Shown: positions 4,201 to 46,000 of the stretch, in pieces
Layout of the letters: every line of letters begins with the position of its first letter
Numbering within the stretch: position 1 is the stretch's first letter
Source of the DNA: Azolla caroliniana
Lineage: Eukaryota > Plantae > Polypodiophyta
Direction: 5' to 3'
DNA: 59,433 nt
Assembly (NCBI GenBank): GCA_043228905.1
Contig: JBHGNT010000179.1
Span: 1 to 59,433 of the forward strand
Position numbers and translations under genes: made by a program
The notes under the pieces: generated by a model
Database searches by the model: none
Told to the model about the DNA's origin: nothing
Seen by the model: only the letters and a program-made list of their open reading frames with translations

Positions 4201-4349
4201 TTAGTCTCTCTGTGTAGCAATTGGATAGAAGAACCTGTTCCACACAACCACCCTGAGCTATGATCAAGACATAACAAACCTACCACATATGTCTCATACC
4301 GTTGTCATGGAGGATTCCGGCAAAAGGGAGAAAAGCTCGCCGACCGCGT
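1295..4349. repeat. Modular tandem repeat (satellite) derived from a chromovirus LTR, left part; units ~610-670 bp
   Basis: Motif ttggatagaagaacctgttccacacaaccaccccgagctatgatcaag recurs at ~1341, 1601, 1963, 2634, 2892, 3609 and 4221; the start (tgttaagagtctatta, 1295) is the reverse complement of the LTR end at 21574. Confidence 0.85.
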
Positions 4350-5134: not shown

Positions 5135-5205
5135 TCCGCCCCCACCTAACCGCGCATCCTCCGGTATGCGCCAAGAGAGTTGGGACGGAGAAAACCGGCC
5201 CGTCT

Positions 5206-8562: not shown

Positions 8563-8628
8563 CGTACATGCTCCGCTGTCGGAGAAGCAAAATTTCCTAC
8601 CTATTGTACACGGTTTTATCGTACAGAT

Positions 8629-8694
8629 GTGGGGTTTTCCCGGAGCATCCGGACTGTCGCGGCCCCACGCCTTGGCAGTCCTCTCTAAAAATCC
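8629..8694 (-). promoter_or_regulatory. Putative -1 ribosomal frameshift signal (slippery GGAUUUU plus pseudoknot), G1
   Basis: G GAT TTT TAG at the gag stop; pol is in the -1 frame; 6 nt downstream are GGACTG/CAGTCC and GTGGGG/CCCCAC pairings. Confidence 0.75.
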
Positions 8695-10838: not shown

Positions 10839-10851
10839 GTCGGGTTCACCA
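10834..10851 (-). promoter_or_regulatory. Primer-binding site complementary to tRNA-Trp 3' end
   Basis: Plus strand ttcacgtcgggttcacca matches the 3' 18 nt (including CCA) of plant cytosolic tRNA-Trp as recalled; 4 nt from the LTR. Confidence 0.85.
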
Positions 10852-10855
10852 AAGA

Positions 10856-11640
10856 TGTCGAGATATTACGCAAGTGCGTGTGGAAACGAGGCGGGACCGC
10901 GGGGGTCTCGAACCAAAGAGCAAGCGAGGGAAGAGACAGAGGGAGAACCGGCTACGCAGGACCGGGGATACACAGGGACACGGCCCTTCAGCACGGAGAA
11001 CGCGAACAGACACCGACACAGACAGATGCGAATGACTAAATATGTATATTAAGAAAAATGGCTAGCACGACTACAACCCCCGATGGGGCACAGGTTGGTT
11101 ACAACCGAACAGGCCGGCGAACAGATGCCGATGCCTGTTCGCTTCGACGCACAAAGGGGGGTAGCAGGTCGGAGGTGCTGCCGGAAGCGCTCGGGCGTTC
11201 CTCGAAACAGCGCGAGCCTCCTCGGAACCCTGCACAGAAAGCTATGGAGCTCAAGAAGGAAGGAAACAGAGAGAGAAGCGTCCAGAAACGGTCCGACAGC
11301 ACTTCGTCCTCTCTGCGCGATCTGCCTGCAACAGCTCTTTCCTGCTCTTATATAGCCCGACGAGCAGGCCGTCGTGTCAGCTTTATTCCCTGTCCCTTTC
11401 GAACAGGGATCCGCTCCGTTCTTCACGCATCCGCGTAGTTACGCCGCCGACTCGTACAGTTCGCGCGCGCGACCGAAAAGACTGTTCGCGCGGTCTTTGT
11501 CTCCACTCGTGTTAGGGCCCGTTCCTGCCAATTATCCTCCTAATTCGCTTCTATGTACAACTTGGAGCGTGCGCGCGTGAAGAACCGGTTCCCGCGCCTT
11601 GGTGCGCCGATTCCGCTTATGGACGGTTTTCTTCACGACA
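10856..11640 (-). repeat. 5' LTR of G1
   Basis: Direct repeat of 4350-5134, adjacent to the PBS. Confidence 0.95.
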
Positions 11641-14406: not shown

Positions 14407-16788
14407 TGTCACATGACGACAAGATTTGAACTCTTGACCTCTTGTATATGGTCAAGTGTTGTGTTCTAACCAACACATCCAAATATATGGTCATGTTATG
14501 TATATCTTAGTACATTATTAGTAGATTATCTATTTCAAGTTCTAGGAGTTTTTAGAAAGTTCTAGAATGAGAAGGTTCTAGAGGGTTCTAGAATATTCTC
14601 CGGAATATTCTAATGCATGTACTTCGAATCACAGTATAAATACTTGTAACCTCCTTGGTCCCTTTCAAGGGATTCAACATTAGTCATTGACACATCAATA
14701 TAGTGTTCTCGTTTCACCCCATCTTGTCTCCTTGACTTCTATCTCTTTCTTCCTCGTCACTTCTAGCTCAAGTTCACAACCTGTTGCTCATAGTCCCATC
14801 ATCCGTGCTCCGTCCTAGTCTGCACTTGGTGTGTTTGTGACAGTTTGAATCCCTTCAAACTAGAAGCATTACCCATCTTCATCATCGCCCTTGCTTCTAG
14901 AGTTACCATTGTCACTGTCATTGGTTCTAGCGTTACCATCATCAACATCCCTTCGTTTTCTCTCTTCCTCGCTATCTCTATCTCTTAGTTTCTTTTCGTC
15001 ATCGTCTTTGTCTTTTCTCTCCTAGTTTCTTCTCATCTCTATCTCCTAGTTTTTTCTCATCCTTCACTTCTCTATCTCCTAGTTTCTTCTCACCATCATC
15101 TCTATCTCTGCAATTCTTATCATCTTCCACATCCCTATCTTGCATTTTTTGTCATTGTTATCCTTGTCCTTGTGTTTCCTACCGCTTTCATCTCTATCTA
15201 TGTGTTTCTTATTATCTTTGTCACTTTCCTTGCATTTCCTATCACCTTCATCCCTATCTTTGTGTTTTCTATCATCCTTTGTATATGTGTCTTTGTGTTT
15301 CTTCAGAACCTCAACATCTCGATCTCTATGTTTCTTATCCTCTTCATCTCTTTCTCCGCTTCCATCATTGCCATAGTCAAAGTCATTGCTTCCAAAGTTG
15401 CTTCATCAACATCATTGCCTTCATTGCTTCATGTTCGACATCATCATCTTCAACCCTCTTGTTGTCATCATCAACACTACTTTGCCTAGCCGTCATTGTT
15501 GTCAAGTGTTCCAGTTCTCGGTGAGGACCGTGCAGGGTTGCTCACATCCATTGGTGTTTGTGTCTCCGGTGAGGACCACACATGGTCGGTCATGCCCTTT
15601 GGTGTTCGCATCTCCGGTGAGGACCGTACATGGTCTCTCACGCTCGTTGGTGTTTCAGTTCTCGGTGAGGACCGCACATGGTCGCTCACATCCATTGGTG
15701 TTCGTGTCTCCGGTGAGGATTGCACATGGTTGCTCACGCCCATTGGTGTTCTAGTTCCCGGTGAGGACCGCACATGGTTGCTCCTTTCCATTAGTGTTCG
15801 TGTCTTCGGTGAGGACCATACATGGTCTCTCATGCCCGTTGGTGTTCGTGTCTCCGGTGAGGACCGCACATCGTTGCTCACGTCCGTTGGTGTTCCAATT
15901 CCTGGTGAGGATTGCACATGGTCGCTCACGCCAATTGGTGTTGTTCTCTTTGGTGAGAACCGCACATGGTTGTTCACTCATGTTGGTGTTCCTATCTCCG
16001 GTGAGGCCCGTACATGGTCGCTCACACTCACGTTTGTGTTCTAGTCTCCGGTGAGGACTGCACATGGTCGCTCACACTCATGTTGGTGGCCCAGTTTCCA
16101 GTGAGGACCAGACATGGTCGCTCACACTCACGTTGGTGTTCCATTCTCCGGTGAGGACCGAACATGGTTTCTCACGCTCACATTGGTGTCCAGTCTCCGG
16201 TGACGACCACACATGGTTGCTTGTGTTCACCCGTGCTCCTATTTCTGGTGAGGACTGCTCATAGTCACTCACATCTCAACATACTTTGGTTTTCCCTTTC
16301 GGCTCACCCCTACACCACACATTCGAAAAGGTGGCCGTAAAGAGGGGGATAATGTCACAGACATGACAAAAAGATTTGAACTCTTGTATATAGTCAATTG
16401 TTGTGTTCTAACCAACACATCCAAATATATGGTCATGTTATGTATATCTTAGTACATTATTAGTAGATTATCTATTTCAAGTTCTAGGAGTTTTTAGAAA
16501 GTTCTAGAACTAGAAGGTTCTAGAGGGTTCTAGGATATTCTCCCGAATATTCTAATGCATGTACTTCGACTTGACACAATATAAATACTTGTAAACTCCT
16601 TGGTCCCTTTCAAGGGATTCAACGCCAGTCATTGACACATCAATATAGTGTTCTCGTTTCGCCCCATCTTGTCTCCTTGTGTTTTATCTCTTTCTTCCTC
16701 GTCACTTCTAGCTCCAAGTTCACAACCCGTTGCTCATAGTCCCATCATCCATGCTCTGTCCTAGTTTGCGCTTGGTGTGTCCGTGACA
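14407..16788 (+). mobile_element. Non-autonomous LTR retroelement (Tcn1/Tf1-like LTRs, no retroviral coding domains)
   Basis: LTRs 14407-14842 and 16353-16788 (tgtcac...gtgaca); TSD ccatt/ccatc; PPT aagagggggataa at 16340-16352; the ~1.5-kb interior is low-complexity sequence plus a tandem array. Confidence 0.9.
15505..16270. repeat. 48-bp tandem array (~16 copies; later units ~50 bp)
   Basis: ggtgaggac core at 15520, 15568, 15616, 15664 and onward to ~16247; 16-aa periodicity in ORFs 15496..16044 and 15486..15977. Confidence 0.92.
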
Positions 16789-23015: not shown

Positions 23016-23805
23016 TGTAAAAACAAATAGCATGCGGAAGCAATAGGAAACCGAACACAGAAACACAGGTTTAAAGGAGAGCTTGACAGTACGCGGGAGA
23101 GACAGAGAAGGAGCAGAATAAGTTTGATCCATTTCAAAACAATAATAGTTCTCTCTACATGAAACGTTGTCGAGCCCTTCGGCTCCGGATCGTTGCGTGA
23201 GTCGGGTGGGAACCGCCGAGGTTTTGGACTAGGAGGAAGAGGAATACAACTTAAGGCTAGTTATGAATAATAGGAAGAGAAGTAAGATAGTAATCTCGTG
23301 AATCCCACGAGTTTAGTGTATTTTAAAACAATATTTAGATTATAAGAGTAATTTAGATGGCAAAATTCGTGAATCCCACGAATATATATTAGATTGATCA
23401 ATTCTTCTATATTAATCAACAACCATATACATATTTTTCTCCTCCTTATATAAAGATGGAAGAGGCTAAGCATGGCTTCATGCTTTTTCGCCTAAAGTGC
23501 CCATGCACACTAAATGTGAATGTGATGCTTTGTCATTTCCTAAATATAGGGCTCATGCACGCTAGATGTGCATGAGTCACTTTTAATGTCACGTGTAAAT
23601 AAAATATTCACACTCTAAAGAATACATGATTTTTACCTTTTAATAAAGGTATGTGTAAATAAAGGTCTTATACGTATTAAATCTATAAATGGTAAAGTTG
23701 GGGTTTATCTACGTGGAGGTGCATGGTTCGAATCTTGCCCTATGCACGTGATAAATTCTTTTGATATATTATTTATTTATTTATATGTATCTAAAATCGG
23801 ATATA

Positions 23806-26800
23806 TTATTTTATGGTTTTCACGTAGTGTGTGGAATACACTACGACATTCGCCCCCTCCGAACCCGCACATCCTCCGGTATGTGCCGAAGTTCTCGATC
23901 CCCCATATCCGCCTTCACCCAAAGCTTCCTCCGATTCTCCCCTTATGTCGACTATGAGTTGTAATTCACTTTCTTCGCTTCCCGCATCACCGTGGTCTTC
24001 GTCCGATTGCTCCTCGTTGTCGGCCTTGGCTTGGATCACATAGGGTTTGTCGTCGGTCCGCTTCTTGAAAATCTTCACCCGCTTCCCGGCTGTAGGCACT
24101 CGTAGTATTGTTCCATCCAACTCGGACAGTCGGTACGTTCCGTTGTCGAAGACTTTCCGAACCTCGTATGGCCCGAACCACCTTTTCGCGAATTTCCGCA
24201 TCGTTGTATGTTGATGGTCCAAACTACTGTCATAGACGATCACCCAATCTCCTTTTTCAATCCTCCTCGGTCGTAGTCGGTGCTTTGTGTCAAACCGGCT
24301 TTTGTTCCTTAATCGTGCTTCTTGTTGTCGGCGTATTGCTTCCGCTATGTCTGCCGGTCTTCCCTCTAGTTGTCGTATCCGGACCGCTAGTAGTTCTTCC
24401 CGGCTCATCTCTTCCTTCCACGGTAGCACTGTCCATGTTGCGATCGCGGTTTCCGTCGGCATTACCGGTGCTTGTCCGGTCATGAGTTCTGCCGGCATGT
24501 AACCGGTTATGGAACTATGCGTCGTCCGATCCGCCCATAGTGCATACGGAAGCATCTGCGGCCAGTCCTTCACCTTTCCATCGCATGCCTTCGCAAGTGC
24601 TTTCACGATCAGACTATGTCCTCGTTCGATTTTCCCGTTGGCCTCCGGATTGTATGCCGTTGTCAGCGATAACCGAACTTCGTGTTTAGCGAAGAATCCC
24701 CTAGCTTTGTCCGAGTCGAGTTCTCCCCGGTCCGCAATCACTTGTCCTACGCACCCGTACCTGCAAAATACTTCCTCCAAAAGAAATTGGCATACCGCGG
24801 AACACGTTTTCCTCTGAAGCGCTCGACCTTCTACTTGATTCGTGAGATCTTCCCGAGCTAATACCAAGTATTTCTTTTGTCCGATCCCGATCGGCATGGC
24901 CACTATGTCAACCATCCACTTGAAGTTGATTGTCGGTGAGAATGTCGGATGTAACTCATCTCGATGTCGAACCCCGGAGTAGACTTGACATTTCTCGCAG
25001 CTTTCCGTGAACTCCGCGACATCTTTGTACATTTTCTTCCACCAATATTTTTGCTTGATCTTCACAAATGTTGCCCATGTTCCTCGGTGTCCAGCCCAAT
25101 CGGATTCGTGAAACTCGGACATTATCCGGTTTCGTTGCTCTTTTGTCCCGACTACTCGAAGTGGTATACCATCCGGTCTTTTCGGCGCCCTCCATATTAA
25201 TCCGTTTTCCAAGAAGAACTTTTGGACTTGTCTCTTCTTCCTTCGGATCTCGGCTCTTCTTCCTTTATCGTTTGTTGAATCCTCGGCCTCTTGTAACATC
25301 TTCCCGATCATCAAGATTTCTCCCTCGTATTCTTCTTCTCGGAATTCCCGGATTACGTTTACTCGGCATATGTGCTCTGACGTGAAGTAGTCTTCGGAAA
25401 CTTCTTCATTATCCGATTCGGTTATGTCGTCTCCGAACCGAGCCCTTGATAACATATCCGCTACCGCATTGTCCTTCCCCGAGATGTGTCGAACCTCCGG
25501 ATTAAGCGACTTGACATATGTAACCCACCTTAGCATAGCTACATCCGGTATCGTACAACGCCGCATCATCCCGAGTATCGGAAGACAATCCGTCTCGATC
25601 ACCACTTCGGCTCCGATCAAATAATCCCGATCCGATTTTATCGCCGACACGACTCCCCACAGTTCTCTTTTGACTTGCGCATATCCACGTTGCCTTTCGT
25701 TGAGAACCTTTGCTCCGAATCGGATCGGATACCGCGAACCATCCGAGTCGGCTTGATTGATGACCCACCCGATACCGGTTGGACTTGTATCAACCGTTAC
25801 TATGATCGGTCGGTCATAGCTCGGTTTCTTAAGTGCTTCCGCCCTCCGAAGTGTCTTCTTCAATTTCTTCATGGCTTTGGTGTGTTCTGGTTTCCATTCA
25901 AATTTCTTACCTTTCCGCAACAAGTGGTAGAGTGGATCCGCTATATGTGCATAGTGCGGAATCCATATGTGATAGAATGCACATGCACCGAGAAACCTTC
26001 GGACTTTGGATGTTGACTCGCATACTTCCTCCATAGCTCGAATCGCATCGATCTTTGTTGGTGACGGTCTTCGGCCGTAGGGCCCACATAGATGTCCGAC
26101 CACCAATATTTCTTCTTGCCCGAATGCCGATTTCTCCCCGGAAAGTGTTAGGTGCACATCTTCTAGCTTTCGCAACACTTTCTCGCAATCATGAATATGG
26201 TCGACCACGAACTTTCGGCATCCCCGATCATCCATAGTCTCATCTTTTTCTTCTACCGCGCATCCTTTCATCGGAATGTCATCGAGGAACGGCATCGTTA
26301 TCTCCGGAATGCAGTCTCGAAGCACCTTGTTCATCGCGTTCATCATATGAGCAACCGAGTTTGTCGCTCCTTGTGGTAGTGTGCACATTCGGACTAATCC
26401 TATCGGTGTTCGCATGGTTGTGATGTCTCGGCTCTCCACGGCTAGTTGGAATTGGTCATACCCCGAGTATAGGTCTCCGATGGAGTATATCGCATGACCG
26501 GCAAAAGCTTCCGCAAATTCGTCCACTATCGGACCGACTCCCGAGTTCCGGATCGTGACCTTATTCACCGGTTGCAAGTCTTGGATAAATCGGAGTGACC
26601 CATTCTTCTTCGGAACCGTAAACCATCGATTTGAGTACGGAGCAGTTGATGGCTCTAGAATCCCCATCGCCACCTTCTCCTTGAGCAAGTCAATGACTTT
26701 TGGAATATGCGCTCGTGGCACCGGAATCGGCTTCAGGTTCCACGGTACATGGTCAATCGTGAAGATCACCATCGGCTCCACTGTTCTCGGATCGACGCAC

Positions 26801-27540
26801 CCTATCTCCCTTGATGTAAATGCAAACGCTTTGCCGTGTTGCTCCAACATCTCGCGAAACCGTTCTTCTTCTTTTTGTAATAGGAACCCACCTCCACCGA
26901 TCCGAAGTTTCTTCCGGGTCTCATCCGTGAAGGCATGTCCGATATCCACGGTCTTCCGAAGTGTCGGATCTCCCGAGACTTCTTTCCTCTTTTGTTCGCT
27001 ATCGGCGGGTAGTGGTCCCGCGGCCGGTTTCACCTTCTTCTCCATGGTCTTGTATTTCGTACTTACCATTGCTTCTTCTTTGCGGAGCGTATCCGGCTCC
27101 ATTTTCGCAATGATCTCGTACATCTCGACCGATTCCACCGGGACTACCCGGTTCCCTTGGCTTTTATCTTCCGCAAGTTCTTCAAGTCGTTGTAGCGTGC
27201 TCCCATAGAACACTTCTTCGACTATCCCCACGATTTCTTCATCTTCTTTTATTATTGATGCCGACCGCAACTTATCCTCCACTTGTCGGTATCCTTTCTT
27301 CAATCCTCCGGTTACGGTTGTGTACGTAGATGCCCCATCCGGACCTATTCGTACATGTTTTGCTCCGAGAGTTTTCTTCCTGTGTGGGGTATCAGGGCTT
27401 CTCGGACTATCACTTCCCCACTCCGCAACAGTCCGCTTTAAAAATCCATTCTCACTTGGGACAAGAGTTCGCTCTTGTTCCTTTCGTGATTTGCTGGCAC
27501 CGTTAGGAATTTGACGGATTTCCCACCGTTTTGGCTCCAA
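23806..27540 (-). CDS. pol: G2 Pol polyprotein (RT, RNase H, integrase)
   Basis: 1244-aa open frame with the same LPQG/FLDD, HHCC and DDE motifs as G1 Pol; overlaps the gag end in the -1 frame. Confidence 0.95.
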   Translation of the reverse strand: MEPKRWEIRQIPNGASKSRKEQERTLVPSENGFLKRTVAEWGSDSPRSPDTPHRKKTLGAKHVRIGPDGASTYTTVTGGLKKGYRQVEDKLRSASIIKEDEEIVGIVEEVFYGSTLQRLEELAEDKSQGNRVVPVESVEMYEIIAKMEPDTLRKEEAMVSTKYKTMEKKVKPAAGPLPADSEQKRKEVSGDPTLRKTVDIGHAFTDETRKKLRIGGGGFLLQKEEERFREMLEQHGKAFAFTSREIGCVDPRTVEPMVIFTIDHVPWNLKPIPVPRAHIPKVIDLLKEKVAMGILEPSTAPYSNRWFTVPKKNGSLRFIQDLQPVNKVTIRNSGVGPIVDEFAEAFAGHAIYSIGDLYSGYDQFQLAVESRDITTMRTPIGLVRMCTLPQGATNSVAHMMNAMNKVLRDCIPEITMPFLDDIPMKGCAVEEKDETMDDRGCRKFVVDHIHDCEKVLRKLEDVHLTLSGEKSAFGQEEILVVGHLCGPYGRRPSPTKIDAIRAMEEVCESTSKVRRFLGACAFYHIWIPHYAHIADPLYHLLRKGKKFEWKPEHTKAMKKLKKTLRRAEALKKPSYDRPIIVTVDTSPTGIGWVINQADSDGSRYPIRFGAKVLNERQRGYAQVKRELWGVVSAIKSDRDYLIGAEVVIETDCLPILGMMRRCTIPDVAMLRWVTYVKSLNPEVRHISGKDNAVADMLSRARFGDDITESDNEEVSEDYFTSEHICRVNVIREFREEEYEGEILMIGKMLQEAEDSTNDKGRRAEIRRKKRQVQKFFLENGLIWRAPKRPDGIPLRVVGTKEQRNRIMSEFHESDWAGHRGTWATFVKIKQKYWWKKMYKDVAEFTESCEKCQVYSGVRHRDELHPTFSPTINFKWMVDIVAMPIGIGQKKYLVLAREDLTNQVEGRALQRKTCSAVCQFLLEEVFCRYGCVGQVIADRGELDSDKARGFFAKHEVRLSLTTAYNPEANGKIERGHSLIVKALAKACDGKVKDWPQMLPYALWADRTTHSSITGYMPAELMTGQAPVMPTETAIATWTVLPWKEEMSREELLAVRIRQLEGRPADIAEAIRRQQEARLRNKSRFDTKHRLRPRRIEKGDWVIVYDSSLDHQHTTMRKFAKRWFGPYEVRKVFDNGTYRLSELDGTILRVPTAGKRVKIFKKRTDDKPYVIQAKADNEEQSDEDHGDAGSEESELQLIVDIRGESEEALGEGGYGGSRTSAHTGGCAGSEGANVVVYSTHYVKTIK
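27384..27447 (-). promoter_or_regulatory. Putative -1 ribosomal frameshift signal (GGAUUUU plus pseudoknot), G2
   Basis: G GAT TTT TAA at the gag stop; 6-nt spacer; GGACTGTTGC/GTGATAGTCC stem; GTGGGG/CCCCAC second stem. Confidence 0.75.
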
Positions 27541-29501
27541 ATTCGCGCAAAAGCCGCACCGCTATCGAGCACCTTCGTCTCCATCCGTGATGCCGTGATA
27601 AAGGGTTGGCCGAGGATGACGGAATGTGAAACCTCATCTTGCACGAAGAAATTTTGGTCGATCTCGACATCCCCGATCTTCACCGTCACATCCGGACAAG
27701 CCGCAAATAGATCTTCCGTTGCTTTGGTGGCCACCCGAATCTTCCATCCATGGTTGGTGTTAATAGGCCACTTCCCCTTCCGGTAGAACTCCTTGGACAT
27801 CAAGTTGATCTCCGATCCGTGATCAATCAATGCTAGCACGGGTTCTTTGATGTTGCCGATTCGGACCGGAGTCTTCGTAGTCGCGCGTGCCCAATGTGGC
27901 CTTGTATAGTGGGAGTTCGGAATTTCGTCCTCCACTTCAGTGTCGTTCATTAAAACGGTGTTCGCATTCACCCTTGGAGCATTTTCCTCCGTACTTTGTC
28001 TTTTTCGCTTCACGAGATCCACGAGAAGATCGTGGAACTCCTTCTTTGCTATTCCGAGTAGCTCCCGAAGCGAGAAATCTACCCGGCTATCCAAGATTCT
28101 TTCCTCGAACACTCTTTTCAAGTCGGTTTGTTGTTCTATGTCCGAGGCGAGCTTGAATGCCGGAGTCGCCTTTTCTTTTCCCTTACCTCCGGAGTTCCAG
28201 CTTTCCGGTATCTTCGATGGACCGGCCGCATCCTCCGTTCGTCGTCGTTTCTCGTCCACATACACCTTATGCAATTGACACAGGGCGTATACGCTATTCT
28301 TGTCGACAGGGCACTCCCATCCCGTAGCTTCCCGGACGCCTTCCGCGGTGCTTCGGATCTCGTTGGAGTCGGTTTTCTCGGTGTTTTCTAGAACTTCCGG
28401 CCAAAAAGACGTCTTTGCTCTCGATGACTCCCCGACACATATTCCCGCGGTTGTCGCATAGTTGCTTCTTGCCGCCAATTCCTCCTCGAGCACCTTCTTC
28501 ATGCCGCCTTTACGGAAGTTCGGTCGGAGTGGCTTCCGAGAGTCCATCGAATGAATCCGGTTTCCCTCGTAGTAGATGAGATCCCACCGTAGCGCCTCCT
28601 TATGCTCGTCGCAATCCCTCCGATCGTGTTCGGCGCTATCGCACCATATGCACCGTCGGTCCGTATACTTGGAGCTTGTGGGGCGGTCATCCGACTTCTT
28701 CACCATCGCGATCTTCAGATTCTCCATCTCCTTCAATAGTTGCTCCACCGTAGATGCATCAATCCCCTTCTCGGTTGTAGTCTCTCGAGCCCTCGGTTGA
28801 TGGTCTTCCAATCCGGTTCTCGGTTTCGGAATCGGTTCCGAAACCCTCTTTTCCTCGTCGGCAAGCCATTGCCCCCTCTTCGTGTATCGCGCGACGATAT
28901 CCCGCACGCTTTCCCATGTTTCGGTGAGGCCGCTCTCCGTGGTCGTGTCCTCCAAGAGCACTCCGAGATCTTTCCGGTCCCGGACGTCCACGGCTCGCAA
29001 GAACATGATTACCTTGTCCGGTACGAGGATAGCTTGATCTCTCGCGGACAACCTCCCGAACCGGCTTTCGAATGCCGAAAACACATCAACGACCTTCAAT
29101 CCCTTGTCCGGCGTCTCCACCCAATCTTCGAATCCCCTTCGCGTCGCCTTGGAGGAATCCTCGATGGTGAACGTCCTCTTTAGCTCTACTTCAAACGCCT
29201 CCCATGTCGGATTTTGTTGTCGTAGCCCATGGATGCTTGCTTGAAGCCCGTCGGTCGCCACCCGGTTGAAGGACGTCACTTGCAGTCCTTCCGATATTCC
29301 GCACCGTAGCATCTCCGCCTTGTAATCCCGAAGATACCGCGACACGTCTTTCCCGTTGAATTGCCTGTTTCGTTGCACGAGCCGCTCCAATGATGCCGCT
29401 ATCTCCGACATCCTGCGTTGTTCTTGTAGCATGCGCTCGAACATCATCATCATGTTGCTAGCCTCCGGTTGATTTTCATCTCCTTGCCACTCGGTCTTCA
29501 C
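27438..29501 (-). CDS. gag: G2 Gag-protease
   Basis: 687-aa ORF; zinc knuckle CIWCDSAEHDRRDC; protease LIDHGSEINLM...VILGQPF. Confidence 0.92.
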   Translation of the reverse strand: MKTEWQGDENQPEASNMMMMFERMLQEQRRMSEIAASLERLVQRNRQFNGKDVSRYLRDYKAEMLRCGISEGLQVTSFNRVATDGLQASIHGLRQQNPTWEAFEVELKRTFTIEDSSKATRRGFEDWVETPDKGLKVVDVFSAFESRFGRLSARDQAILVPDKVIMFLRAVDVRDRKDLGVLLEDTTTESGLTETWESVRDIVARYTKRGQWLADEEKRVSEPIPKPRTGLEDHQPRARETTTEKGIDASTVEQLLKEMENLKIAMVKKSDDRPTSSKYTDRRCIWCDSAEHDRRDCDEHKEALRWDLIYYEGNRIHSMDSRKPLRPNFRKGGMKKVLEEELAARSNYATTAGICVGESSRAKTSFWPEVLENTEKTDSNEIRSTAEGVREATGWECPVDKNSVYALCQLHKVYVDEKRRRTEDAAGPSKIPESWNSGGKGKEKATPAFKLASDIEQQTDLKRVFEERILDSRVDFSLRELLGIAKKEFHDLLVDLVKRKRQSTEENAPRVNANTVLMNDTEVEDEIPNSHYTRPHWARATTKTPVRIGNIKEPVLALIDHGSEINLMSKEFYRKGKWPINTNHGWKIRVATKATEDLFAACPDVTVKIGDVEIDQNFFVQDEVSHSVILGQPFITASRMETKVLDSGAAFARIWSQNGGKSVKFLTVPANHERNKSELLSQVRMDF

Positions 29502-29514
29502 GTCGGGTTCACCA
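29497..29514 (-). promoter_or_regulatory. tRNA-Trp primer-binding site of G2
   Basis: Identical 18-mer to the G1 PBS, again 4 nt from the LTR. Confidence 0.85.
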
Positions 29515-30751
29515 ACTGTGTCGAGCCCTTCGGCTCCGGATCGTTGCGTGAGTCGGGTGGGAACCGCCGAGGTTTTGGACTAGGAGGAAGAGGAATACAA
29601 CTTAAGGCTAGTTATGAATAATAGGAAGAGAAGTAAGATAGTAATCTCGTGAATCCCACGAGTGTAGTGTATTTTAAAACAATATTTAGATTATAAGAGT
29701 AATTTAGATGGCAAAATTCGTGAATCCCACGAATATATATTAGATTGATCAATTCTTCTATATTAATCAACAACCATATACATATTTTTCTCCTCCTTAT
29801 ATAAAGATGGAAGAGGCTAAGCATGGCTTCATGCTTTTTCGCCTAAAGTGCCCATGCACACTAAATGTGCATGTGATGCTTTGTCATTTCCTAAATATAG
29901 GGCTCATGCACGCTAGATGTGCATGAGTCACTTTTAATGTCACGTGTAAATAAAATATTCACACTCTAAAGAATACATGATTTTTACCTTTTAATAAAGG
30001 TATGTGTAAATAAAGGTCTTATACGTATTAAATCTATATTTATAACACTAAAGATAAATTATTACAATGGTAAAGTTGGGTTTATCTACGTGGAGGTGCA
30101 TGGTTCGAATCTTGCCCTATGCACGTGATAAATTCTTTTGATATATTATTTATTTATTTATATGTATCTAAAATCGGATATATTATTTTATGGTTTTCAC
30201 GTAGTGTGTGGAATACACTATGACAACGTGCTCAACAACACTATTTATACAAGTTCTAAGAGGACTGACAGAAGTACCGCGTACTTCAATGCTCACTTGA
30301 GCGTCTGACACTAACTACGAGACTATTAACTACCTAGTAGTCTAGGCTACTAATAGACTTCCGATTATTGTTTGGTCTAGCTAACCGGCTCCCCAGCTCA
30401 CCGGTTCAATGGCTCGCCGGCTCACCGATCCGGCTTCATCCTTCCGGATGTCGATCCGGCTCAGGCTTATTCAGCCGATCCAGATCCGGTTGAGCTTGCC
30501 GCACAACACTCCCCCTCAAGCTCAACTTAAGGTCGGATCATAGTGTCAGTCTCCATGGCCGCCGGTCCTTCCACCCGGCTCCTTCGAGCATCACTCCACC
30601 TCGATCGCGCTCCTCGTCCGGTTCGGTTCCGTTTGATGCGACCCTTCTGATTTTGCGCACCTCGACCTCCTCGATCGGCTTGTTTGCTCAACGGGCCTAA
30701 TTCAACTCCCTCGCTGCTGTGACTTCGGCTCTTGTCAACCCGTTGGTTCCT

Positions 30752-34112: not shown

Positions 34113-34563
34113 TATTAGAGATTAGGTACTAAAGTAAGCATAAAATAAGGATATATCAATGATAGATCTAGAAAGAATAGAGAGAAAAGAGAGAAAGAAG
34201 GGTGCCGATCCACCCGACCACCCCCGAGCGAAGGGATCGAGACGGACTCGAGCCTCGATCGGCGTCCCATACCACCGCCTTGGCGTCGAGTCGTACCTGG
34301 ACGATAGCGCGCTTGCTACAAGAGTCGTTCCACTCACGGACAGAGTCTCGACGTAGTCAATGCATGCCCCAATGAGGGTAGCTAGGCCTCTTATTTATAG
34401 TAATTCTCAAGGCCCCCAGCCATGTTCACACTTGGCCTCATGGGTTGTCTCAATCCCGAGGATTAAAAGTAATCCTCCCCTTCTTTAGACTCTTTGTTTA
34501 ACCCTCACACTTATCCACGTGTATAGAATACTACGACAATTCTCACCACGGGATATTATATGG

Positions 34564-37554
34564 TCATGCCCGTAACATACTCCCCCTCTTTAAAACATTG
34601 CACTCTTGCAATGGAAAGTTAGGGAAGTTAGTTCTTAGAGTCGTTTCGCGTTCCCATGTGGCATCTTTGATTGATTTATCCATCCATTTTATTTTAAATT
34701 CTCGGATTTCCTTAGCACGTAATTTTTTTGTTTTAACATCGAGAATTCTTTCTGGTACATGTGGTTTAGAAGATAAATCTTCAGAAGTAACCAGAGTTTC
34801 AGTTGTAACTGTATTGTCGCCAGAACCTAGAAGTTCTTTTAGACGACTTACATGAAAGACTGGATGGATTCCAACACCATCGGGAAGAGCGAGACGATAG
34901 GCTGATGATCCAATGCGTTTGAGGACTATAAAAGGTCCACAAAACCGTGGGGCTAACTTAGCGCACTTACCCGTAGACAATGTCTTAGAATTGTGAGGTA
35001 CACGTAAAAATACCTTCTGTCCAGGGCTGAATACACGAGGTTGCCTGTGATGATCGGCATAAAAACACGCTCTATCTTGAGCTGTTTTTATATTATCCCG
35101 TGCAATATGCAACATATCTTGCATATCCCGAAGAAAGTTTTGCGTACTTCGCAACTCATCATGATGTATATTAACATCAATCGGGGCTCGTGGCTGAAAT
35201 CCATACATCAACATAAAAGGACTATATCCCGTCGACGTATGCTTGGAGCTGTTATAAGCAAACTCCAAAATTGGGAGGTAACGTTCCCATTTTGTTGGTT
35301 TTGCACCAACGTATGCTCGAAGCATGTCCTCAATAATTTGATTTACTCGTTCTGTCTGTCCATCGGATTGAGGATGATCCGTGGAGCTCATGCTCAACGT
35401 AGTTTCTAACTTCTTAAAGACTTGCGTCCAGAAGTCACTAGTAAACTTCGGATCTCGGTCACTCACGATATCCATCGGTAACCCGTAAAAACGAAATAAC
35501 TCATCAACGAATTGGTAAGCCAATTCAGGAGCTGTTACCGTGGTTTTAGTAGCAATAAATCTGGCCATTTTAGTTAGTCTGTCAACCACAACCCATATGG
35601 CATCATGACCTTTTTGGGTGCGAGGAAGGCTAACAATAAAATCCATGGATATACTTTCCCACTTATTATTGGGAATGTCCAAGGGATGTAAAAGTCCTGC
35701 GGCTTTAAGTCGCTCGGCTTTGTTAACCTGACATTGGTGACATTTAGTCACATAGCTATGTATGTCAGGACGCATCTTAGGCCAATAAAATTGAGTGGAG
35801 ATGAGAACGAGTGTACGATGTATTCCAGGGTGCCCTGCTGAGGGTGCATCATGGCATTCAAAAAGAATTCTCTTTTTGACCTCAGGTAAATCTGGAACAC
35901 AAACCTTCCCATTACGGTAGAGCAGACCGTTAGCAATGTGGAAGTATTCCTTCGAGGGTGTGGTGGTGTCTGTTCCAGACTCGACTCTTGCCCAGTATTT
36001 TGCAAAATAATTGTCATCAGGATACTTTCCTCGAAGGTGATCATAAAGATCTGATGTTATTTCAGTGAAGCTAAGCATGTTAACTTCACGGATGCGACTT
36101 AGTGCATCAGCGACAGTATTCATGGAACCTTTACGATATCGTATGGAAAAATCAAAGTCCTGGATGAGATCAGCCCATCGTGCCTTACGACCTTTCAGGT
36201 CTTGTTGGTCACAAAAATATTTCAAGGACTCGTGGTCCGTAGTTACCACAAAGCGATTTCCATAAAGGTAATGGCGCCATGTTTTGAGCGCATGTATAAC
36301 CGCAAATAATTCCTTTTCTTGAACGGTATACCGACATTGAGCAGAATCAAGTTTCTTACTCTCGAATGCTATTGGTTTACCATCTTGATACAAGACAGCA
36401 CCTATAGCATAATCGCTTGCGTCGGTTTCAACCTCAAAAGGTTTTGAAGGATCGGGTAAAAGAAGTGAAGGAGCCTTGCATACCAAGTCCTTGAGTTCCT
36501 TAAAGGCGAGGTCTAGTGTAGCATTCCACACAATAGGTTTTGTAGACTTACGCGTTTGACCTTTTAGAAGATCAGTAAACGGCGTTGTCAATTGTGAGTA
36601 ATTACGAAGAGATTTTCGCAGAAATCCGACAAAACCAAGGAATGATCGAACTTCTCGAATATTCCGAAGAGTGGGCCAAAGCTTGATTTTCTCGATGCGA
36701 GAAGGATCAATTTCAACTCCTCGTTCGGTTATGAGATGTCCAAGATAAGTAATTGATTTCTTGAAGAACTCACATTTTGAGATCTTCGCGTAAAATTGTT
36801 TGTCACGCAATATTTGTAAAACAAAGCGGACATGTCTAGCATGTTCTTGTAATGTACGGCTATAAACTAAAATATCATCTAAGAAGATAACGACAAATTT
36901 TCCAAGTTGTTCTCGGAAAATGTCATTCATTTCTTGTTGAAATGTAGCCGGAGCATTGGTCAAACCAAAAGGCATAACCAAAAACTCATAATGGCCGTAG
37001 CGCGTACGAAATGCTGTTTTAGGAACATCGTCCTCACTTATTCGTATTTGATGGTAGCCAGTACGGAGATCAAGTTTCGTAAAATACCGAGCTCCCTGGA
37101 GACGGTCAATTAGATCGTCAGCCCGGGGCAATGGGTACGAATTCTTGATCGTCACTTTATTCAAGCGTCGGTAATTAATACACATACGCCATGTGCCCTC
37201 TTTCTTTTTAACCAAGAGAACTGGTGCACCCCATGGAGATTTACTATAACGTATATAACCCATTCGTAAATAGTCCTTAAGTTGCTTAGCTACCTCATCC
37301 TCTTCAGATCGACTTAGGCGATACGGAGGTATACTAATGGGTGCAATGCCAGGTACAATATCTATACGATGGTCTATATTACGTTTAGGAGGTAAACCAT
37401 CGGGTAGTTCACTCGGAAAAACATCACGAAAATCGTTTACGATTTCATCAAGTTGTTTTTGTTCAAAATATGTTAATTGACCCGAGACATTATCGATATT
37501 GTAAACGTGAATGTCCGGATCAAGTACACAATAAAATAACGTAGAACAAGACAA
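34564..37554 (-). CDS. pol: Element D Pol: RT, RNase H, integrase, chromodomain-like C-terminus
   Basis: 996-aa frame: [29 protein letters not shown] motif, PERILD...FKIKW...DATWE. Confidence 0.95.
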
Positions 37555-39088
37555 CTCGGATATTGATGGACACGAGGAAACAATCGAGAGGGATTGTTTT
37601 TTTTACACATTGAATAAAATGCGTACAATCGTTGAGTACAAAAGAAATGGAATGGCGAACCCAATCAATAAATAAAGAAGAGCTTTTATTATAAAACCAG
37701 GGATAACCCAGTATTACATCGGTGGTACTAAGATTCATTACATGGAAGTCTACTTCCTCTATATAGGTATCAATAGAAATTCCTAAAGAATGAATCGCCC
37801 CGTTGATGTGTTGTACTCTTCCATCAGCCAAGTGCACCGTGTAGGTGTGATCACTTACGGTGGGTTGGATTCCCCATATCTGTACCAAACGATCATTCAC
37901 AAAATTGTGTGAGCTTCCCGAATCAAATAAAAATTGTACGGGAGATCCATTGATATACCCGTTTGCACGTAGTAAATCATTGGGACCCAATACATAATGA
38001 GGGAAAGAACATTGACAATTACTCAAATGATGTGTATAGACCTGAAGGACATTAGGAATCTGACCTTTATGGTCTGTAGCTTTAGGTTTGGCGTCGTGCT
38101 CTTTTCGTTGGAGCTTACGACATTGCTCTTTTGTATGACCCTTCTTTTTGCAGAATACGCAAAAAGGATGTTGTCGCTTATTATCGCGATCCATGAATTC
38201 GTTGGGTGTCTTGCGTTTCCCAACGAATTGCGACTGCTTAGTCCCGGGCGCTTCGTTGGGTTTGTTATGGTCCTTCTTCGAAGTGCGTTGATAGCGAAGA
38301 ACTATCTCAACGGCCTCTTCGAAGGATTTTGGATCCTTATCGTGCATTATCCAGTGATAGTCCGAATTGGAGATGCCATTGACAAAACAAGCTATTAACC
38401 AATTGTCCCCTTCTAGACCCGATTTTTGGATTTGGGTTCTAGCATGGTGGACATAGTCTTCTAGCGAGGAAAACTTCCTGCTAGAGAGGTTCATTAAAGC
38501 TTGTGCTGCCTCGGTTCGAGAGGGAGGTTGTAGAAATTGACCCTTGAAAACTGTGACAAAGTCTGTCCAGGTCTCGGGCAATCTCCCCAAAGTTCGGAGC
38601 CCACGCCACCAAGCGGCGGCCTTACCCCCTAGTTCTCGGCCGACATATGCAATCTTCGTACTATCTGGCGTGGGATAGAGCTCAAAATGAGACTCCCATC
38701 GGCCCAGCCACGTGCAGATTGCTTCTTCGGTTCTTTCCTTTTTATCTCCCGTAAATGGCTTTACGACAAATGATGGTTCACCCTGACGCTCATCAGGTCT
38801 ATTAATCTCATTTTGGAGACTAATGACTCGTGCCTCGAGAGCACTTTGAGATTGCCGAAATTCGGTCAACTGCTGCGCGGTTGAACTAAGGAAATGTTGT
38901 ACTTGTAAAATATACGCCTCAATGGACATTGTCCCAGGAGGATTTCCTTGAGGTCTTTCCGCTTGAGCGGAGGGCATCGGGTCGTTATTCTGAGCCATTG
39001 AATGATTATTTCTGGCAAAGAAATAAGATAAGGTCAGACAAATAGTCATAACATCTTGTCGTGGTGTAAACATATCATGGGCAAACAT
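37520..39088 (-). CDS. gag: Element D Gag-protease
   Basis: 522-aa ORF with [14 protein letters not shown] and [10 protein letters not shown]...VILGYPW; out of frame with pol at an A8 run (37597-37604). Confidence 0.9.
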
Positions 39089-40189
39089 TACTCGATATCA
39101 TGATCTCACGTCAATACCCCTCTAGACGTATGAGATGAGGTTCAAGATCAGGTTACTATGGTAACACAGAGGTGTTTTAAAAACCATGGGGGTGACAAAT
39201 GAATGCCTTTCCCTGATCTCTATATCGATTTTTTTCATGGCGGCTCCCCGAGGCTCAACCATGTATGTTCGCGTCATGAATAGTTTATACACGAAAAAAA
39301 TGTTAACAATAACTATGTTTCTGTGCCCACATATGTGGTTTCGGCTCTTTAAGTCCTATTACGAGGACCCCGAAGTGCACTTAGACCTAAAGTCTAAACA
39401 TGTATTATAGTCATATGTATCAACGATGTTGTATGGTGTTGGTCATATTTGAACTCGAGACCTCGAGGACAAATACATTAAACACTTGAGCCAACCAAGT
39501 AGATTGCGCGTCTTGAATGTTTAATGTTTGAGGCGTATTCGAGATATGCGAGGCATTTGCCCCTATATGTTTTTTTTAAAAGAAACATATAGGTCAAGTG
39601 GCCTTATTTCTCCCTCATTTATTACCCACTATGGTTGTACGCTACCTACCCTCAAGCCTCGTAAGTACAATGGCCTATGCCAAAGTGTAACCTAATGGTC
39701 AAGCCGAATGAGCCCTTGTGTCTTCGTAGGCTCATGTGGCCCATCACATGGTCACGTCATTACGAATGGCGCTCGTAAGAACGAGCTCATGGTGGCATCG
39801 TATCCATGTAACGAGGGGAGATGTTGGATACGTGTGTCATTAGAGCGACCCTACTTGATGTGGATCAAGCCCGACGTATTCAACATCATTTTGGCTATAC
39901 GAGGTTCGTTACGTAACGAAAGATCAAAGTGACCAACGGGAATTTCAACAATAAAAATTGTTGATAAAAGGGATGGTGACAACGCCATTCTCACAAAAAT
40001 GTGAGGACGGCCACCAAAATCCTCTCCCCAATTAGGAAAACATTTGATATGAATCACGTAATCTAAAATATACACATATGTCAATATATCACATATATAC
40101 GATCAGAGACGTATATAAGTGACCACATATGCGTATACTAAATGAATCGTTTTTTTTATATAGCCAACAATGATGTATTCGGGATACGT

Positions 40190-40437
40190 AATCGAGGCAT
40201 ATACCTCTACGCACACGAAACATCCGAAAATAAGGTTAAGCGTAATTCGCAATTGAGGTATTGACCTCTTACGCATAGTAAATCCAACGCATATCATTTC
40301 GAACGAATCGAGGTATTGACCTCGTACGCGAACGTAACATATGTTCGTGAACGTAATACGCAATTGAGGTAGTAACCTCGTACGCATACGACACTCATCA
40401 CATATGATTTATATGTCAAACGAGGTATTGACCTCGT
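40190..40437. repeat. Five spaced copies of a hairpin motif GAGGT-ATTG-ACCTC in the 5' UTR of element D
   Basis: Motif starts at 40194, 40255, 40310, 40366 and 40422 (spacing 55-61 bp). Confidence 0.75.
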
Positions 40438-41161
40438 GGACATATGTAAACGTTTAAGATAACCAATTAAATACCACGTCAACATCATTGAATATATGAA
40501 AAAAAAACTACATATTAAGTATACACATGTATAGAAGGGAGAAGAAAAATTAGATAAAAAATTAAGGAAAATTTACCGAAGTTCTTTCGCTAATCCTTGT
40601 CTGCATGAAGGCGACCGCACAACGATCAATCGCCATCCCACGCGAAGACAAAAAGAAAACCAAAAGAAACGTTAGTACATATTCTCTGATACCAAATATT
40701 AGAGATTAGGTACTAAAGTAAGCATAAAATAAGGATATATCAATGATAGATCTAGAAAGAATAGAGAGAAAAGAGAGAAAGAAGGGTGCCGATCCACCCG
40801 ACCACCCCCGAGCGAAGGGATCGAGACGGACTCGAGCCTCGATCGGCGTCCCATACCACCGCCTTGGCGTCGAGTCGTACCTGGACGATAGCGCGCTTGC
40901 TACAAGAGTCGTTCCACTCACGGACAGAGTCTCGACGTAGTCAATGCATGCCCCAATGAGGGTAGCTAGGCCTCTTATTTATAGTAATTCTCAAGGCCCC
41001 CAGCCATGTTCACACTTGGCCTCATGGGTTGTCTCAATCCCGAGGATTAAAAGTAATCCTCCCCTTCTTTAGACTCTTTGTTTAACCCTCACACTTATCC
41101 ACGTGTATAGAATACTACGACAATTCTCACCACGGGATATTATATGGTCATGCCCGTAACA

Positions 41162-42468: not shown

Positions 42469-42510
42469 GGTTACGGTTACGGTTACGGTTACGGTTACGG
42501 TTACGGTTAC
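42469..42510 (+). repeat. (GGTTAC)7 in the 5' LTR of C; (GGTTAC)4 in the 3' LTR at 47230-47253
   Basis: Counted directly; accounts for the 18-bp LTR length difference. Confidence 0.95.
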
Positions 42511-43088
42511 GGTCCCGGCTACGGAGCCGGATGATGAAGACCCCGGCTACGGAGCCGGATGATGAATGTACCCGGAGCGAGATCCGGATGCGGGGACATA
42601 TTTGTGAATATGTTTGCCAAGGGCCCTTGAGGCTATATTTGTAAATAGCCCGAAAGTCATATGTGTATAAATATGACTTAGGGCAAACAGTTTTATGTGG
42701 TTGCTACTTATTTTTCTGTTTTTCCACTTAAGAGGAGTGAAGAGTGAGCAGCCGTGAGAGAGAGAGAGATAGAGCGCGAGAGAGGAAGAGGTAGACGCCT
42801 CTGTGTATTTCCGCCGCCTGTGGCGAGGACAGCGAGCTCAAGGTCGTCGCCTTGCAGCTCGCCATTGTATACTTCTCTGTATAGTGTTGGTTTGGAGTCT
42901 TGTACTCCCGTGGTTTTTCCCGTCTAGGGTTTTCCACGTTAATCCCTGTGTGCTCGCGTCTTGTTTCTCCGTGTGGTTCCTATTTTCTGCTCCATTGATT
43001 CGCGCTTACTCGGTTGTGGCCGGAAGGTGAAGGTGAATAGAAGCGTCTATTCCTTACAAACTGGTATCAGAGCGAACTGCTGCAGAAA

Positions 43089-46000
43089 ATGGAAGGCGGC
43101 GGCAGCGGGCAGCCGGGGATGATGGTGCTGAATGCGCAGAATTACGCCGACTGGAAGATCAAGATGGAGGATCTTCTGATTGTTCGGGACCTGTACGAAC
43201 CGATTGACAGGTCGGAAATACCGAAAGGGGTACTTGAGTCGGAATGGAGGCTTCTGAACCGGAAAGCCGTTGCAACCATTCGGCAATACGTAGACGTGAG
43301 CGTTCTACAACATGTGGCGAACGACGTCAACGCATATGAGATGTGGCGGAAGCTGTCGGGCCTCTACGAGAGGAAAAATGCGTTGAACCGGACCTCCCTG
43401 ATGAGGAAGATAGTGAACCTCAAGTACCGGGACGGCGAGAGTATGGTGGAACACGTGAGCACGTTCATGGGATTCGTGAACCAGCTTGCGGCGATCAAGT
43501 TCCCGTTGGAGGATGCAATGCAAGCCATCATCCTGATGTGTACATTGCCGGAAAGCTGGGAGAACTTGGTGGTGACTCTCAGCACCTCCTGCACCGAAGA
43601 TAACTTGTCCTTACAAACGGTAAAGACAAGTATTTTGAACGAAGAAGCGCGTCGGAGAGATAAAGAACCGGCCTCCGACTCGAAGGCGCTGCTTACCGAA
43701 TCGGATCGGGGAAGACAATGGAACCGGAGTCCGCAAAGACGGGAGAAGTCGGGGACCCGGTCGCAGTCAAGAGGAAGGCCCACATGCTTCCACTGTGGGA
43801 AGCCGGGGCACTTCCGGAAGAATTGTCGGCATTACCGAAAAGACAACGGAGCCGACGACACCGATTCGAAGAAGTCACCGGAGAGAAACGGTGCATACCG
43901 GGGAGCCACGGACCGGAGAGGTCCGGATCGGCGAGGGCAGGACCGGAAAGGAACGACGGCACTCGCGGCAAGTGAAGAAGAGATAATGCTCATTACCGAA
44001 GAGAGGGAGCTGAACCTTTCCGGTGTAGAGATGACCTGGGTGGTCGATTCCGGGGCGTCGTTCCACCTGACCCCGGAGAAGAAATACTTCTCATCCTACA
44101 CAACCGGTGAGCACGGCTGTGTCCGGATGGGAAATGAAGGCACATGCCGGATTGCCGGCATAGGAGACGTGTGGCTGATGACATCAACCGGATGCAAGAT
44201 GCTGCTGAAGGATGTTCGACACGTTCCGGAGGTTCGATTGAACCTGATTTCGGCCGGGAGGCTAGACGATGAAGGCTACACAGGTAGCATCCGGAACGGC
44301 GTAATGAAGTTCAGCAAGAGGAGCCTGATAGTGGCTCGGGCCCGGAAAGAGAACACACTGTACCTGATGAATGCCCGGTTGTGTCCGGAAGAGCTGAATG
44401 TGGCAGCCGACACTACCGGTGAGCTGTGGCACAAAAGACTGTGCCACATGAGTGAGAAGGGGATGAAGAGGCTTGCAGAAGACAACCTTATTCCAGTGAA
44501 GCATGTGCACCTGGAGAAGTGCACCGATTGCCTGGCCGGTAAGCAGAACCGAACCTCCTTCCATTCAAGGCCACCGACGAGACGTAGCGCACCATTGGAG
44601 TTGGTGCACACTGATGTGTGTCAGGTAGAAACGAAGTCACATGGTGGAGCCCAGTACTTCGTAACATTCATTGATGATCACAGCCGGAAGCTGTGGACAG
44701 CACCATTGAAGACAAAGGACCAAGTGTTGTGCGTTTTCAAAGAACTCCACGCGAGAGTGGAAAGGGAATCCGGCAAGAAGCTGAAAGCGATACGAGCGGA
44801 TAACGGAGGGGAATACCGGGGGCAGTTCCAGGAGTACTGTCGCTCGAAGGGAATCCGGCTCGAGTTTACTGTGCCGAAGACGCCGGAACTGAACGGGCTG
44901 GCCGAGAGGATGAACCGGACCATAATGGAGAGGGTCCGGAGTATGCTGGCGCATGCGAAATTACCCAAGGGGTTTTGGGCTGAGGCAATGTCGACGGCGA
45001 CATATGTGATAAATAGATCACCCTCAGTACCTTTGGACGGAGACACGCCGCAGAAAGTGTGGACCGGTAAGGAAGTGTCCTACCGGCATCTGAAGGTGTT
45101 CGGGTGTCTCGCATACGTGCATGTGGCAAAGGACCGGAGAGGAAAGCTAGATCCAAAGACCCGGCCATGCATATTCCTCGGTTACGGCGACGATGAGTTC
45201 GGCTACCGAGTATGGGACCCGGTCGACAAGAAGATATTCAGGAGTCGAGACATCATCTTCATGGAGGACAAGACACTCGCCGACTGGGAGTCGGAGAAGA
45301 AGATGAAGAGCTCCAAGTCGACCGGTGAGGATCAACTCTACGAGGAGCAGTCCCGACCGGCAAGGGACCGGTTAGCACTTGAGGATCCGGCCGAAGACGG
45401 TGAAGAAACAGAACCGGCCGAAGAAGATGAAAATGATACCGGAACCGGCCCCGATCCCGAAATGGATTCGGATGAAGAAGAATCGGAAGAACCGGTTACC
45501 GAAGCTCTCGAACGGAGATATCCTCTAAGAGAGAGGAGGGCCCCCTGGAGATTTCCGGATCCAGAGCACGTGCTGCTAACCGACGAGGGGGAGCCGGAGA
45601 GCTTTGAAGAAGCAAAGCATGACACCCAGAGCCGCAGGTGGTTGAGTGCCATGCAGGACGAGATGGATTCCCTGCATGAGAACCACACATATGAACTTGT
45701 GGAGTTGCCGAAAGGAAAGCGGGCACTTCGAAACAAGTGGGTGTTCAAGCTGAAACCGGGAGATGCCGGAAACCCCCCGAGATACAAAGCCAGGATCGTG
45801 GTGAAGGGGTTTCAGCAGAAGAAGGGCGTCGACTTCGACGAGATATTTGCCCCGGTAGTGAAGATGACCTCCATCCGGACGGTGCTGAGCATAGCGGCAA
45901 GCATGGACCTCGAGGTAGAACAGATGGACGTGAAGACGGCATTCCTTCACGGTGACCTCGAAGAAGAGATCTACATGCAGCAACCGGAAGGATTCGAGAA

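Follow-up and report, generated by a model that had tools for sequence, protein, structure and literature searches.

Programmed −1 ribosomal frameshifting usually depends on an X_XXY_YYZ slippery heptamer, a spacer of 5-9 nt and a 3′ H-type pseudoknot, as outlined in PMC7618472 and PMC5009743, and the heptamer G_GAU_UUU is described in the latter review as a plant-virus shift site. In its account of a 2003 survey, the same 2016 review names two types of plant element with split frames, both of them +1 (PMC5009743). The REXdb classification records overlapping GAG/PROT frames for Tcn1 and Selgy, direction not given (PMC6317226), so that −1 shifting in plant elements generally may not be new. 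Its lineage summaries also describe the Tat elements Ogre and Retand, in which GAG-PROT is split from RT-RH-INT at the protease/RT boundary by a spacer or intron (Ogre) or by a single in-frame stop (Retand), and in which RNase H is of the archaeal type (PMC6317226). The Phygy lineage, which belongs to the non-chromovirus Ty3/gypsy elements, is defined there by its position in an RT/RH/INT tree, and the Phygy entries give a 4-bp NCGN target duplication, tRNA-Trp priming in 81%, a length of 7.7-10.0 kb (a descriptive range from one species) and an ORF organisation listed as not determined (PMC6317226).

The window analysed here is a stretch of 59,433 nucleotides from the fern Azolla caroliniana (contig JBHGNT010000179.1), which carries on its minus strand two Ty3/gypsy LTR retrotransposons, G1 and G2. 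G2 (23168-30225, 7058 bp) has its 5′ LTR at 29519-30225 and its 3′ LTR at 23168-23848 and is flanked by a 4-bp target duplication, ACGT; G1 (4350-11640, 7291 bp) has 785-bp LTRs with one mismatch and the 4-bp duplication GCGT. Both carry the identical primer binding site TGGTGAACCCGACGTGAA (29497-29514 in G2, minus strand), which we take to match the 3′ end of tRNA-Trp; no tRNA gene was found in the window. ORF1 of G2 (27438-29579, minus strand) encodes Gag (DUF4100) and an aspartic-protease-like motif, DHGSE, and ends in ...RMDF*; the motif was read by eye, and ORF1 gave no Pfam match to a protease domain. ORF2 (23806-27561, minus strand) lies in the −1 frame and encodes a linker, RT, RNase H and integrase. 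The corresponding ORFs of G1 are located at 8685-10865 (ORF1) and 5206-8724 (ORF2) on the minus strand. Both elements possess LTRs, a primer site and the Ty3/gypsy order GAG-PR-RT-RH-INT, and since DUF4100 and DHGSE fall in ORF1 and RT, RNase H and integrase in ORF2, the frame changes between protease and RT in both.

Comparison with Phygy revealed that both target duplications fit the NCGN motif, that the internal part is filled by the coding region, and that Pfam finds no chromodomain or other extra domain in G1 or G2 (the same search finds Chromo in the neighbouring element G3). Close protein relatives of G1 and G2 are annotated in Physcomitrium patens: their ORF1 products are 31-67% identical to Physcomitrium proteins, and their ORF2 products are 66-67% identical to a Riccia RT, against 25-27% to the chromovirus G3. 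Judged by these sequence features, G1 and G2 appear to be young Phygy-like Ty3/gypsy retrotransposons; we write "Phygy-like" because the assignment is drawn from such features, the tRNA-Trp match is presumptive, and both elements (7.3 kb for G1, 7.1 kb for G2) are slightly shorter than the Phygy range. The window also holds G3 itself, a chromodomain-bearing gypsy element (34113-41161, minus strand) with identical 465-bp LTRs and a frame break in the +1 direction near 37600, in a stretch of eight A lying between protease and RT, likely a lesion or an assembly indel. A copia element, G4 (42486-47802, plus strand), has one LTR mismatch and a frame break inside RT near 46270-46469. Copies of a 194-bp direct repeat, at 14434 and 16376, lie on either side of a 48-50-bp tandem array (15458-16272), and G1 is adjoined by a 0.3-1 kb repeat array (1339-4349).

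A previous sequence-only reading of this DNA had proposed that a frameshift and pseudoknot architecture is shared by G1 and G2; it was silent on the minus-strand location of the elements and on the shift falling after the protease. The layout it gave for G2, GGATTTT TAAAGC GGACTG-N7-GTGGGG-N6-TAGTCC-N14-CCCCAC, is present at 27447-27384 on the minus strand. There the slippery heptamer G_GAU_UUU (27441-27447) is followed by a 6-nt spacer, UAAAGC (27435-27440), which opens with the ORF1 stop codon. The 5′ strand of stem 1, GGACUGUUGC (27425-27434), comes next, followed by the 5′ strand of stem 2, GUGGGG (27416-27421), which lies inside the stem 1 loop, the 3′ strand of stem 1, GUGAUAGUCC (27404-27413), and the 3′ strand of stem 2, CCCCAC (27384-27389). 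G1 shows the same architecture at 8694-8629 on the minus strand, with the heptamer at 8694-8688, the spacer at 8687-8682, stem 1 formed by 8681-8676 with 8656-8651, stem 2 by 8668-8663 with 8634-8629, and a loop 3 of 16 nt. The compatible change in stem 1 from G-C (G1) to G-U (G2) was likewise found, and stem 1 of G2 reaches the 10 bp claimed for it, or 11 if the last spacer base is counted. A pseudoknot as good occurs in 0 of 317 downstream windows of the G2 Pol and in 1 of 303 of the G1 Pol; the two-helix pseudoknot at the junction exceeds chance.

The LTRs had been called unrelated-looking and Gag divergent, and accordingly the LTRs of G1 and G2 share only a 12-nt match (E 0.065) and their ORF1 products are 44% identical; for ORF2 the identity is 63%. 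The description of the post-junction protein linker as poorly conserved fits the following linker (33%) but not the peptide encoded by the pseudoknot, which is 50% identical over 22 residues. The codon phase of CCCCAC does differ (CCC|CAC in G1, CC|CCA|C in G2), as had been pointed out, but with Pro-His encoded in both elements this is on its own weak evidence for selection on the RNA.

In heptamer type, spacer range, pseudoknot and −1 enzyme frame, G1 and G2 resemble the −1 signals of retroviruses and RNA viruses, from which they differ in being plant-type retrotransposons and in shifting after the protease rather than after Gag. A shift after the protease is the arrangement of Rous sarcoma virus. 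The plant virus using G_GAU_UUU has the identical heptamer, a stop close behind it and plant ribosomes in common with our elements, but its stop lies one codon later, whereas most members described here have an immediate stop and a compact local pseudoknot as stimulator. The protease/RT boundary is shared with Ogre and Retand as summarised in REXdb (PMC6317226); unlike in those elements, the frames of G1 and G2 overlap at the slippery site.

On the family data set out below, G_GAU_UUU together with the predicted H-type pseudoknot very probably drives a programmed −1 ribosomal frameshift between protease and RT in G1 and G2. Most ribosomes would terminate directly behind UUU, releasing a Gag-protease that ends in ...DF. 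A minority would pause at the pseudoknot, where tRNA-Asp and tRNA-Phe would slip in tandem and re-pair from GAU UUU to GGA UUU, and reading would then continue as ...D-F-L-K-R-T into Pol to give a minority Gag-PR-Pol fusion. The shift would thereby set the ratio of Gag-PR to Gag-PR-Pol needed for particle assembly. Three polyA RNA runs from a relative, mostly 90-95% alike, give a depth of about 6-17x over 28185-29354 and of 0-0.7 at the G2 junction. Among the rows listed for these runs there was no RNA joint. At 27990-29520 the reads are confined to the LTR and the first 1.5 kb of G2 ORF1 (probably in sense orientation), a pattern for which either a Gag-only RNA or a derivative with Gag alone may be responsible.

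A protein-based scan of metagenome contigs, which made no use of the RNA motif, confirmed 170 relatives, of which the best 80 were examined; viral contigs and prokaryote genomes were also searched and yielded no relatives. Within this best 80, an in-frame slippery heptamer lies at most 18 nt from the ORF1 stop in 70, reading GGATTTT in 61, GGATTTC in 4, GGGTTTT in 2, GGTTTTT in 2 and GGTTTTC in 1; the variants include G_GGU_UUU in L065 and L072 and G_GUU_UUC in L059. The stop behind the heptamer is TAA in 28 of the 70, TAG in 22, TGA in 12 and later in 8. Five loci (L054, L055, L065, L072 and L076) have their ORF1 stop 15 nt past the heptamer, within stem 1, indicating that an adjacent stop is dispensable. 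RT was found in the −1 frame in 60 of the 63 loci with both heptamer and RT, and the shifted frame is open from heptamer to RT in 61 of them (L052 and L060 being scored in −2), with breaks in L012 and L053. In 16 of 65 sequences (the 63 loci, G1 and G2), the Pol frame is closed by a stop that ends just 3-6 nt upstream of the heptamer, which confines the shift to the heptamer site. The ten loci without an in-frame heptamer showed no downstream RT match and look truncated or damaged by sequence; among them, L043 and L080 have a point change in the heptamer and L044 and L062 have it out of frame. Since a junction identical to that of G2 recurs in two loci and one identical to that of G1 in another, an assembly error in the window is excluded. 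Many loci are near-copies, and the 72 heptamer-bearing sequences reduce to 51 distinct junctions plus one cut short.

The four to five T at the slippery site would also suit transcriptional slippage, inserting a base in part of the RNA. However, the T run is just four in several members (GGATTTC, GGGTTTTG) and slippage has no need of a 3′ pseudoknot at fixed spacing, which leaves it a negligible probability beside ribosomal frameshifting.

The ends of annotated proteins extend the comparison to mosses, liverworts and ferns. Of 221 ORF1 homologues, 120 were listed: 75 of these terminate in D/G/N-F, 22 carry five residues beyond xF, 2 terminate in VFx, and the remaining 21, for the most part fragments or spliced gene models, end in other ways. 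The endings xF* and xF with five further residues together account for 97 of the 120 listed. Riccia P0060 ends in FRDF, Physcomitrium P0087 in FVDF and P0108 in KDFGEVPL, and Adiantum P0107 and P0125 in QDFLGVPL, and from these protein ends we infer the cassette in the named Physcomitrium, Riccia and Adiantum relatives. That the named relatives come from these genera points to a seed-free plant as host. Five further Physcomitrium models (P0020, P0056, P0059, P0065 and P0128) run past KDFG, span the junction and pick up again at varying points, and the introns predicted over the junction are likely invented. In addition, P0012, P0013 and P0015-P0017 combine a G2-like Gag N-terminus with an unrelated tail without protease and are possible non-autonomous derivatives.

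Pol might instead be translated from a spliced RNA lacking the ORF1 stop, as REXdb describes for Ogre with its intron between GAG-PROT and RT (PMC6317226), or from a start of its own in the linker, where Met codons are present, the junction being kept for example for packaging; the Physcomitrium models that span the junction by predicted introns would suit the former. Neither an intron nor a later start, however, would require the Pol frame to be open all the way to the heptamer (61 of 63) or the third-position bias of the linker reported below, and both leave a slippery heptamer at a fixed 6-nt spacing unexplained. Moreover, the variable points at which the Physcomitrium models resume after KDFG are what prediction artefacts would produce. 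We therefore consider splicing or a separate start very unlikely and retain the −1 frameshift as the probable route to Pol.

A MAFFT alignment was made of fifty distinct junctions, a fifty-first being too short to include. Of its 400 cells for the 8-bp core of stem 1, 96.5% are paired, and pairing falls to 22-45% with slid partners. Changes on both sides were observed in 6 of the 8 pairs and in 38 cells, against 6.6 in shuffled alignments (0 of 500 shuffles as high), the cells being counts of related sequences and not of independent events. Stem 2, held in the fixed register of G2, is 78% paired and has both-side changes in 5 of 6 pairs; with the register left free, which favours G-rich matches, 46 of the 50 junctions form 5 bp or more (shuffles gave 20.6 on average and 27 at most) and the other 4 form only 4 bp. 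It was found in five registers, with partners falling in all codon phases, and its pairs differ by branch (for example CAAGG/CCUUG, GCGAGA/UCUCGC and AUGAGGGU/ACCCUCAU); the quick tree used comprised 47 rows, 4 damaged junctions being left out. No pseudoknot was found in the damaged junctions L053 and L057. Across the family, a zero-frame heptamer with a downstream ORF in −1 is thus accompanied by a covariation-backed downstream structure at a spacing within the usual range of 5-9 nt.

The better conservation of stem 1 (96.5% against 78% paired in fixed register), the four junctions with a 4-bp stem 2 and the ease with which G-rich strands pair would all fit a real frameshift for which the hairpin of stem 1 suffices as stimulator and stem 2 is incidental. 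We regard this as improbable, given that stem 2 partners track loop-strand changes in several branches and that 46 of 50 junctions form the helix against a shuffled maximum of 27; the two-helix pseudoknot remains the preferred stimulator. Nested folding gave no significant z-score (−0.71 for G1; −1.78 for G2, 13 of 200 shuffles), and the nested folds of both elements put competing helices around the 3′ strand of stem 2. Rfam, at gathering score and with its frameshift element families included, gave 0 matches in the window.

RNA constraint and amino-acid constraint were separated by resampling synonymous codons with the Pol peptide fixed, in the 42 junctions that had an RT match and a Pol frame open for 150 codons or more (4 others were passed over), the pseudoknot being scored as the summed stacking of its two helices with loop penalties ignored. 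The median score was −28.4 for the observed junctions against −5.4 for the null, with p ≤ 0.05 in 40 of 42 and ≤ 0.01 in 33; L022 (p 0.17) and L049 (p 0.16) miss the test. For the two elements of the window, the observed score was reached in 1 of 300 resamplings (G2, 0.003) and 9 of 300 (G1, 0.03), and the objection attached to the sequence-only reading, that amino-acid constraint might fully explain the conservation, fails.

Codon comparison of 11 hand-picked pairs of relatives, in which G1 and G2 were each used twice, revealed 11 synonymous and 71 nonsynonymous differences over the first 21 Pol codons (231 codons in all), against 620 and 270 over 2144 codons of RT in the same pairs. Synonymous differences per codon are thus roughly sixfold lower in the cassette (0.048) than in RT (0.29), and nonsynonymous differences amount to 0.31 against 0.13. 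With synonymous change suppressed and the amino acids variable, the RNA is constrained while the peptide drifts, and protein constraint does not explain the conservation. In the linker, differences at codon positions 1, 2 and 3 number 186, 153 and 294, a third-position bias in the Pol frame suggesting that the linker is likely translated.

These data bear directly on two other accounts of the cassette: amino-acid constraint, for instance from protease cleavage at ...DF/LxR, and an ancestral lesion that the elements have in common. The G1 and G2 cassette peptides are 50% identical with Pro-His kept, and other young elements in the window (G3 and G4) carry frame breaks; but the synonymous and nonsynonymous rates above and the compensatory pairs of stem 1 speak against both explanations, and purifying selection on RT family-wide indicates that the break is no disabling lesion, so that we find neither credible. 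Selection on RNA structure, as originally proposed, is supported by the covariation and synonymous suppression of the family. The same family data make a random frameshift mutation very improbable; the comparison of two elements, from which it was first held to be ruled out, could equally fit a shared ancestral lesion or the conservation of Pro-His.

Two loci, L052 (junction 2835-2908) and L060 (junction 2497-2570), share 77.5% identity across 5.65 kb and group in a single branch that is nested among −1 elements (SH-aLRT 100, quick tree). Both read CAG GUU UUU, giving the octamer AG_GUU_UUU, and the spacer before stem 1 is 5 nt rather than 6; their pseudoknots rank among the strongest found. 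Pol lies in the −2/+1 frame, open for 1152 codons in L052 and 1099 in L060, and the −1 frame closes immediately in L052 and after five codons in L060; A-site re-pairing after a −2 slip is possible in both. ORF1 is intact in L060 and has one internal stop in L052. The RTs differ by 60 synonymous and 29 nonsynonymous changes, and Pol is under purifying selection. QVFD ends 6 of the 15 listed members of L052's 35-member protein cluster, five full length. Short contigs over 2494-2535 in 2 of 4 DNA runs, with no indel listed and none long-flanked, lend weak support to the L060 junction. One base lost from the sister-type CAG GAU UUU explains heptamer, spacer and frame jointly, and the three features are hence one event rather than three proofs; the −2 case rests on the branch having survived and diversified after that loss.

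AG_GUU_UUU is described as the −2 site of arterivirus nsp2TF (PMC7618472, PMC6675879), and L052 and L060 share with it the octamer, a −2 product frame and an early-closing −1 frame. The arterivirus signal, as presented there, lacks RNA structure and depends on nsp1-beta and poly(C)-binding proteins, whereas in L052 and L060 a pseudoknot is predicted 5 nt downstream. Spacers 1-2 nt shorter are reported to favour −2 (PMC3458567), and the −2 users named in the review are phage Mu, arteriviruses and Trichomonas virus 1 (PMC5009743). On balance, we lean towards a pseudoknot-driven −2 shift as the source of Pol in L052 and L060. A +1 shift would reach the same frame, but its re-pairing is perfect only in L060; a −2 product would be one residue longer than a +1 product, as the review notes (PMC5009743). 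The other competing reading is reinitiation at an AUG in the Pol frame, which both loci have, at different places, 17 or 26 nt upstream of the stop. The −2 candidates comprise two families only, from records with similar identifiers. A Pol N-terminal search for a third −2 family returned only those of L052 and L060 and five more distant proteins, and no VFx* ending was found among the new ones in 113 listed 50% representatives.

A literature search by title and abstract opening, in which subscription journals were mostly uncovered, found no description of a frameshift cassette in Phygy or bryophyte elements, nor of a −2 shift in a retrotransposon. At the junction of G1 and G2 lies a genuine and conserved recoding signal; its type is known, but for this lineage and this position we found none described. 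It is moderately likely, as far as the sequences go, that the cassette has been kept across mosses, liverworts and ferns and that one branch (L052 and L060) switched from −1 to −2. For Phygy, whose expression strategy was listed as not determined, the cassette fills the gap. It offers a 73-nt unit (27447-27375 in G2, minus strand) with about 50 natural variants and an RNA family absent from Rfam, and it is the likely reason for the invented introns in moss gene models. If true, the L052/L060 case would show a retrotransposon that naturally shifts by −2 in a protein-independent way, with a pseudoknot as stimulator. It would also let evolution test the rule, reported from the laboratory (PMC3458567), that −2 is favoured by shorter spacers; for that rule, the branch gives matched natural −1 and candidate −2 cassettes, one slippery-site base apart.
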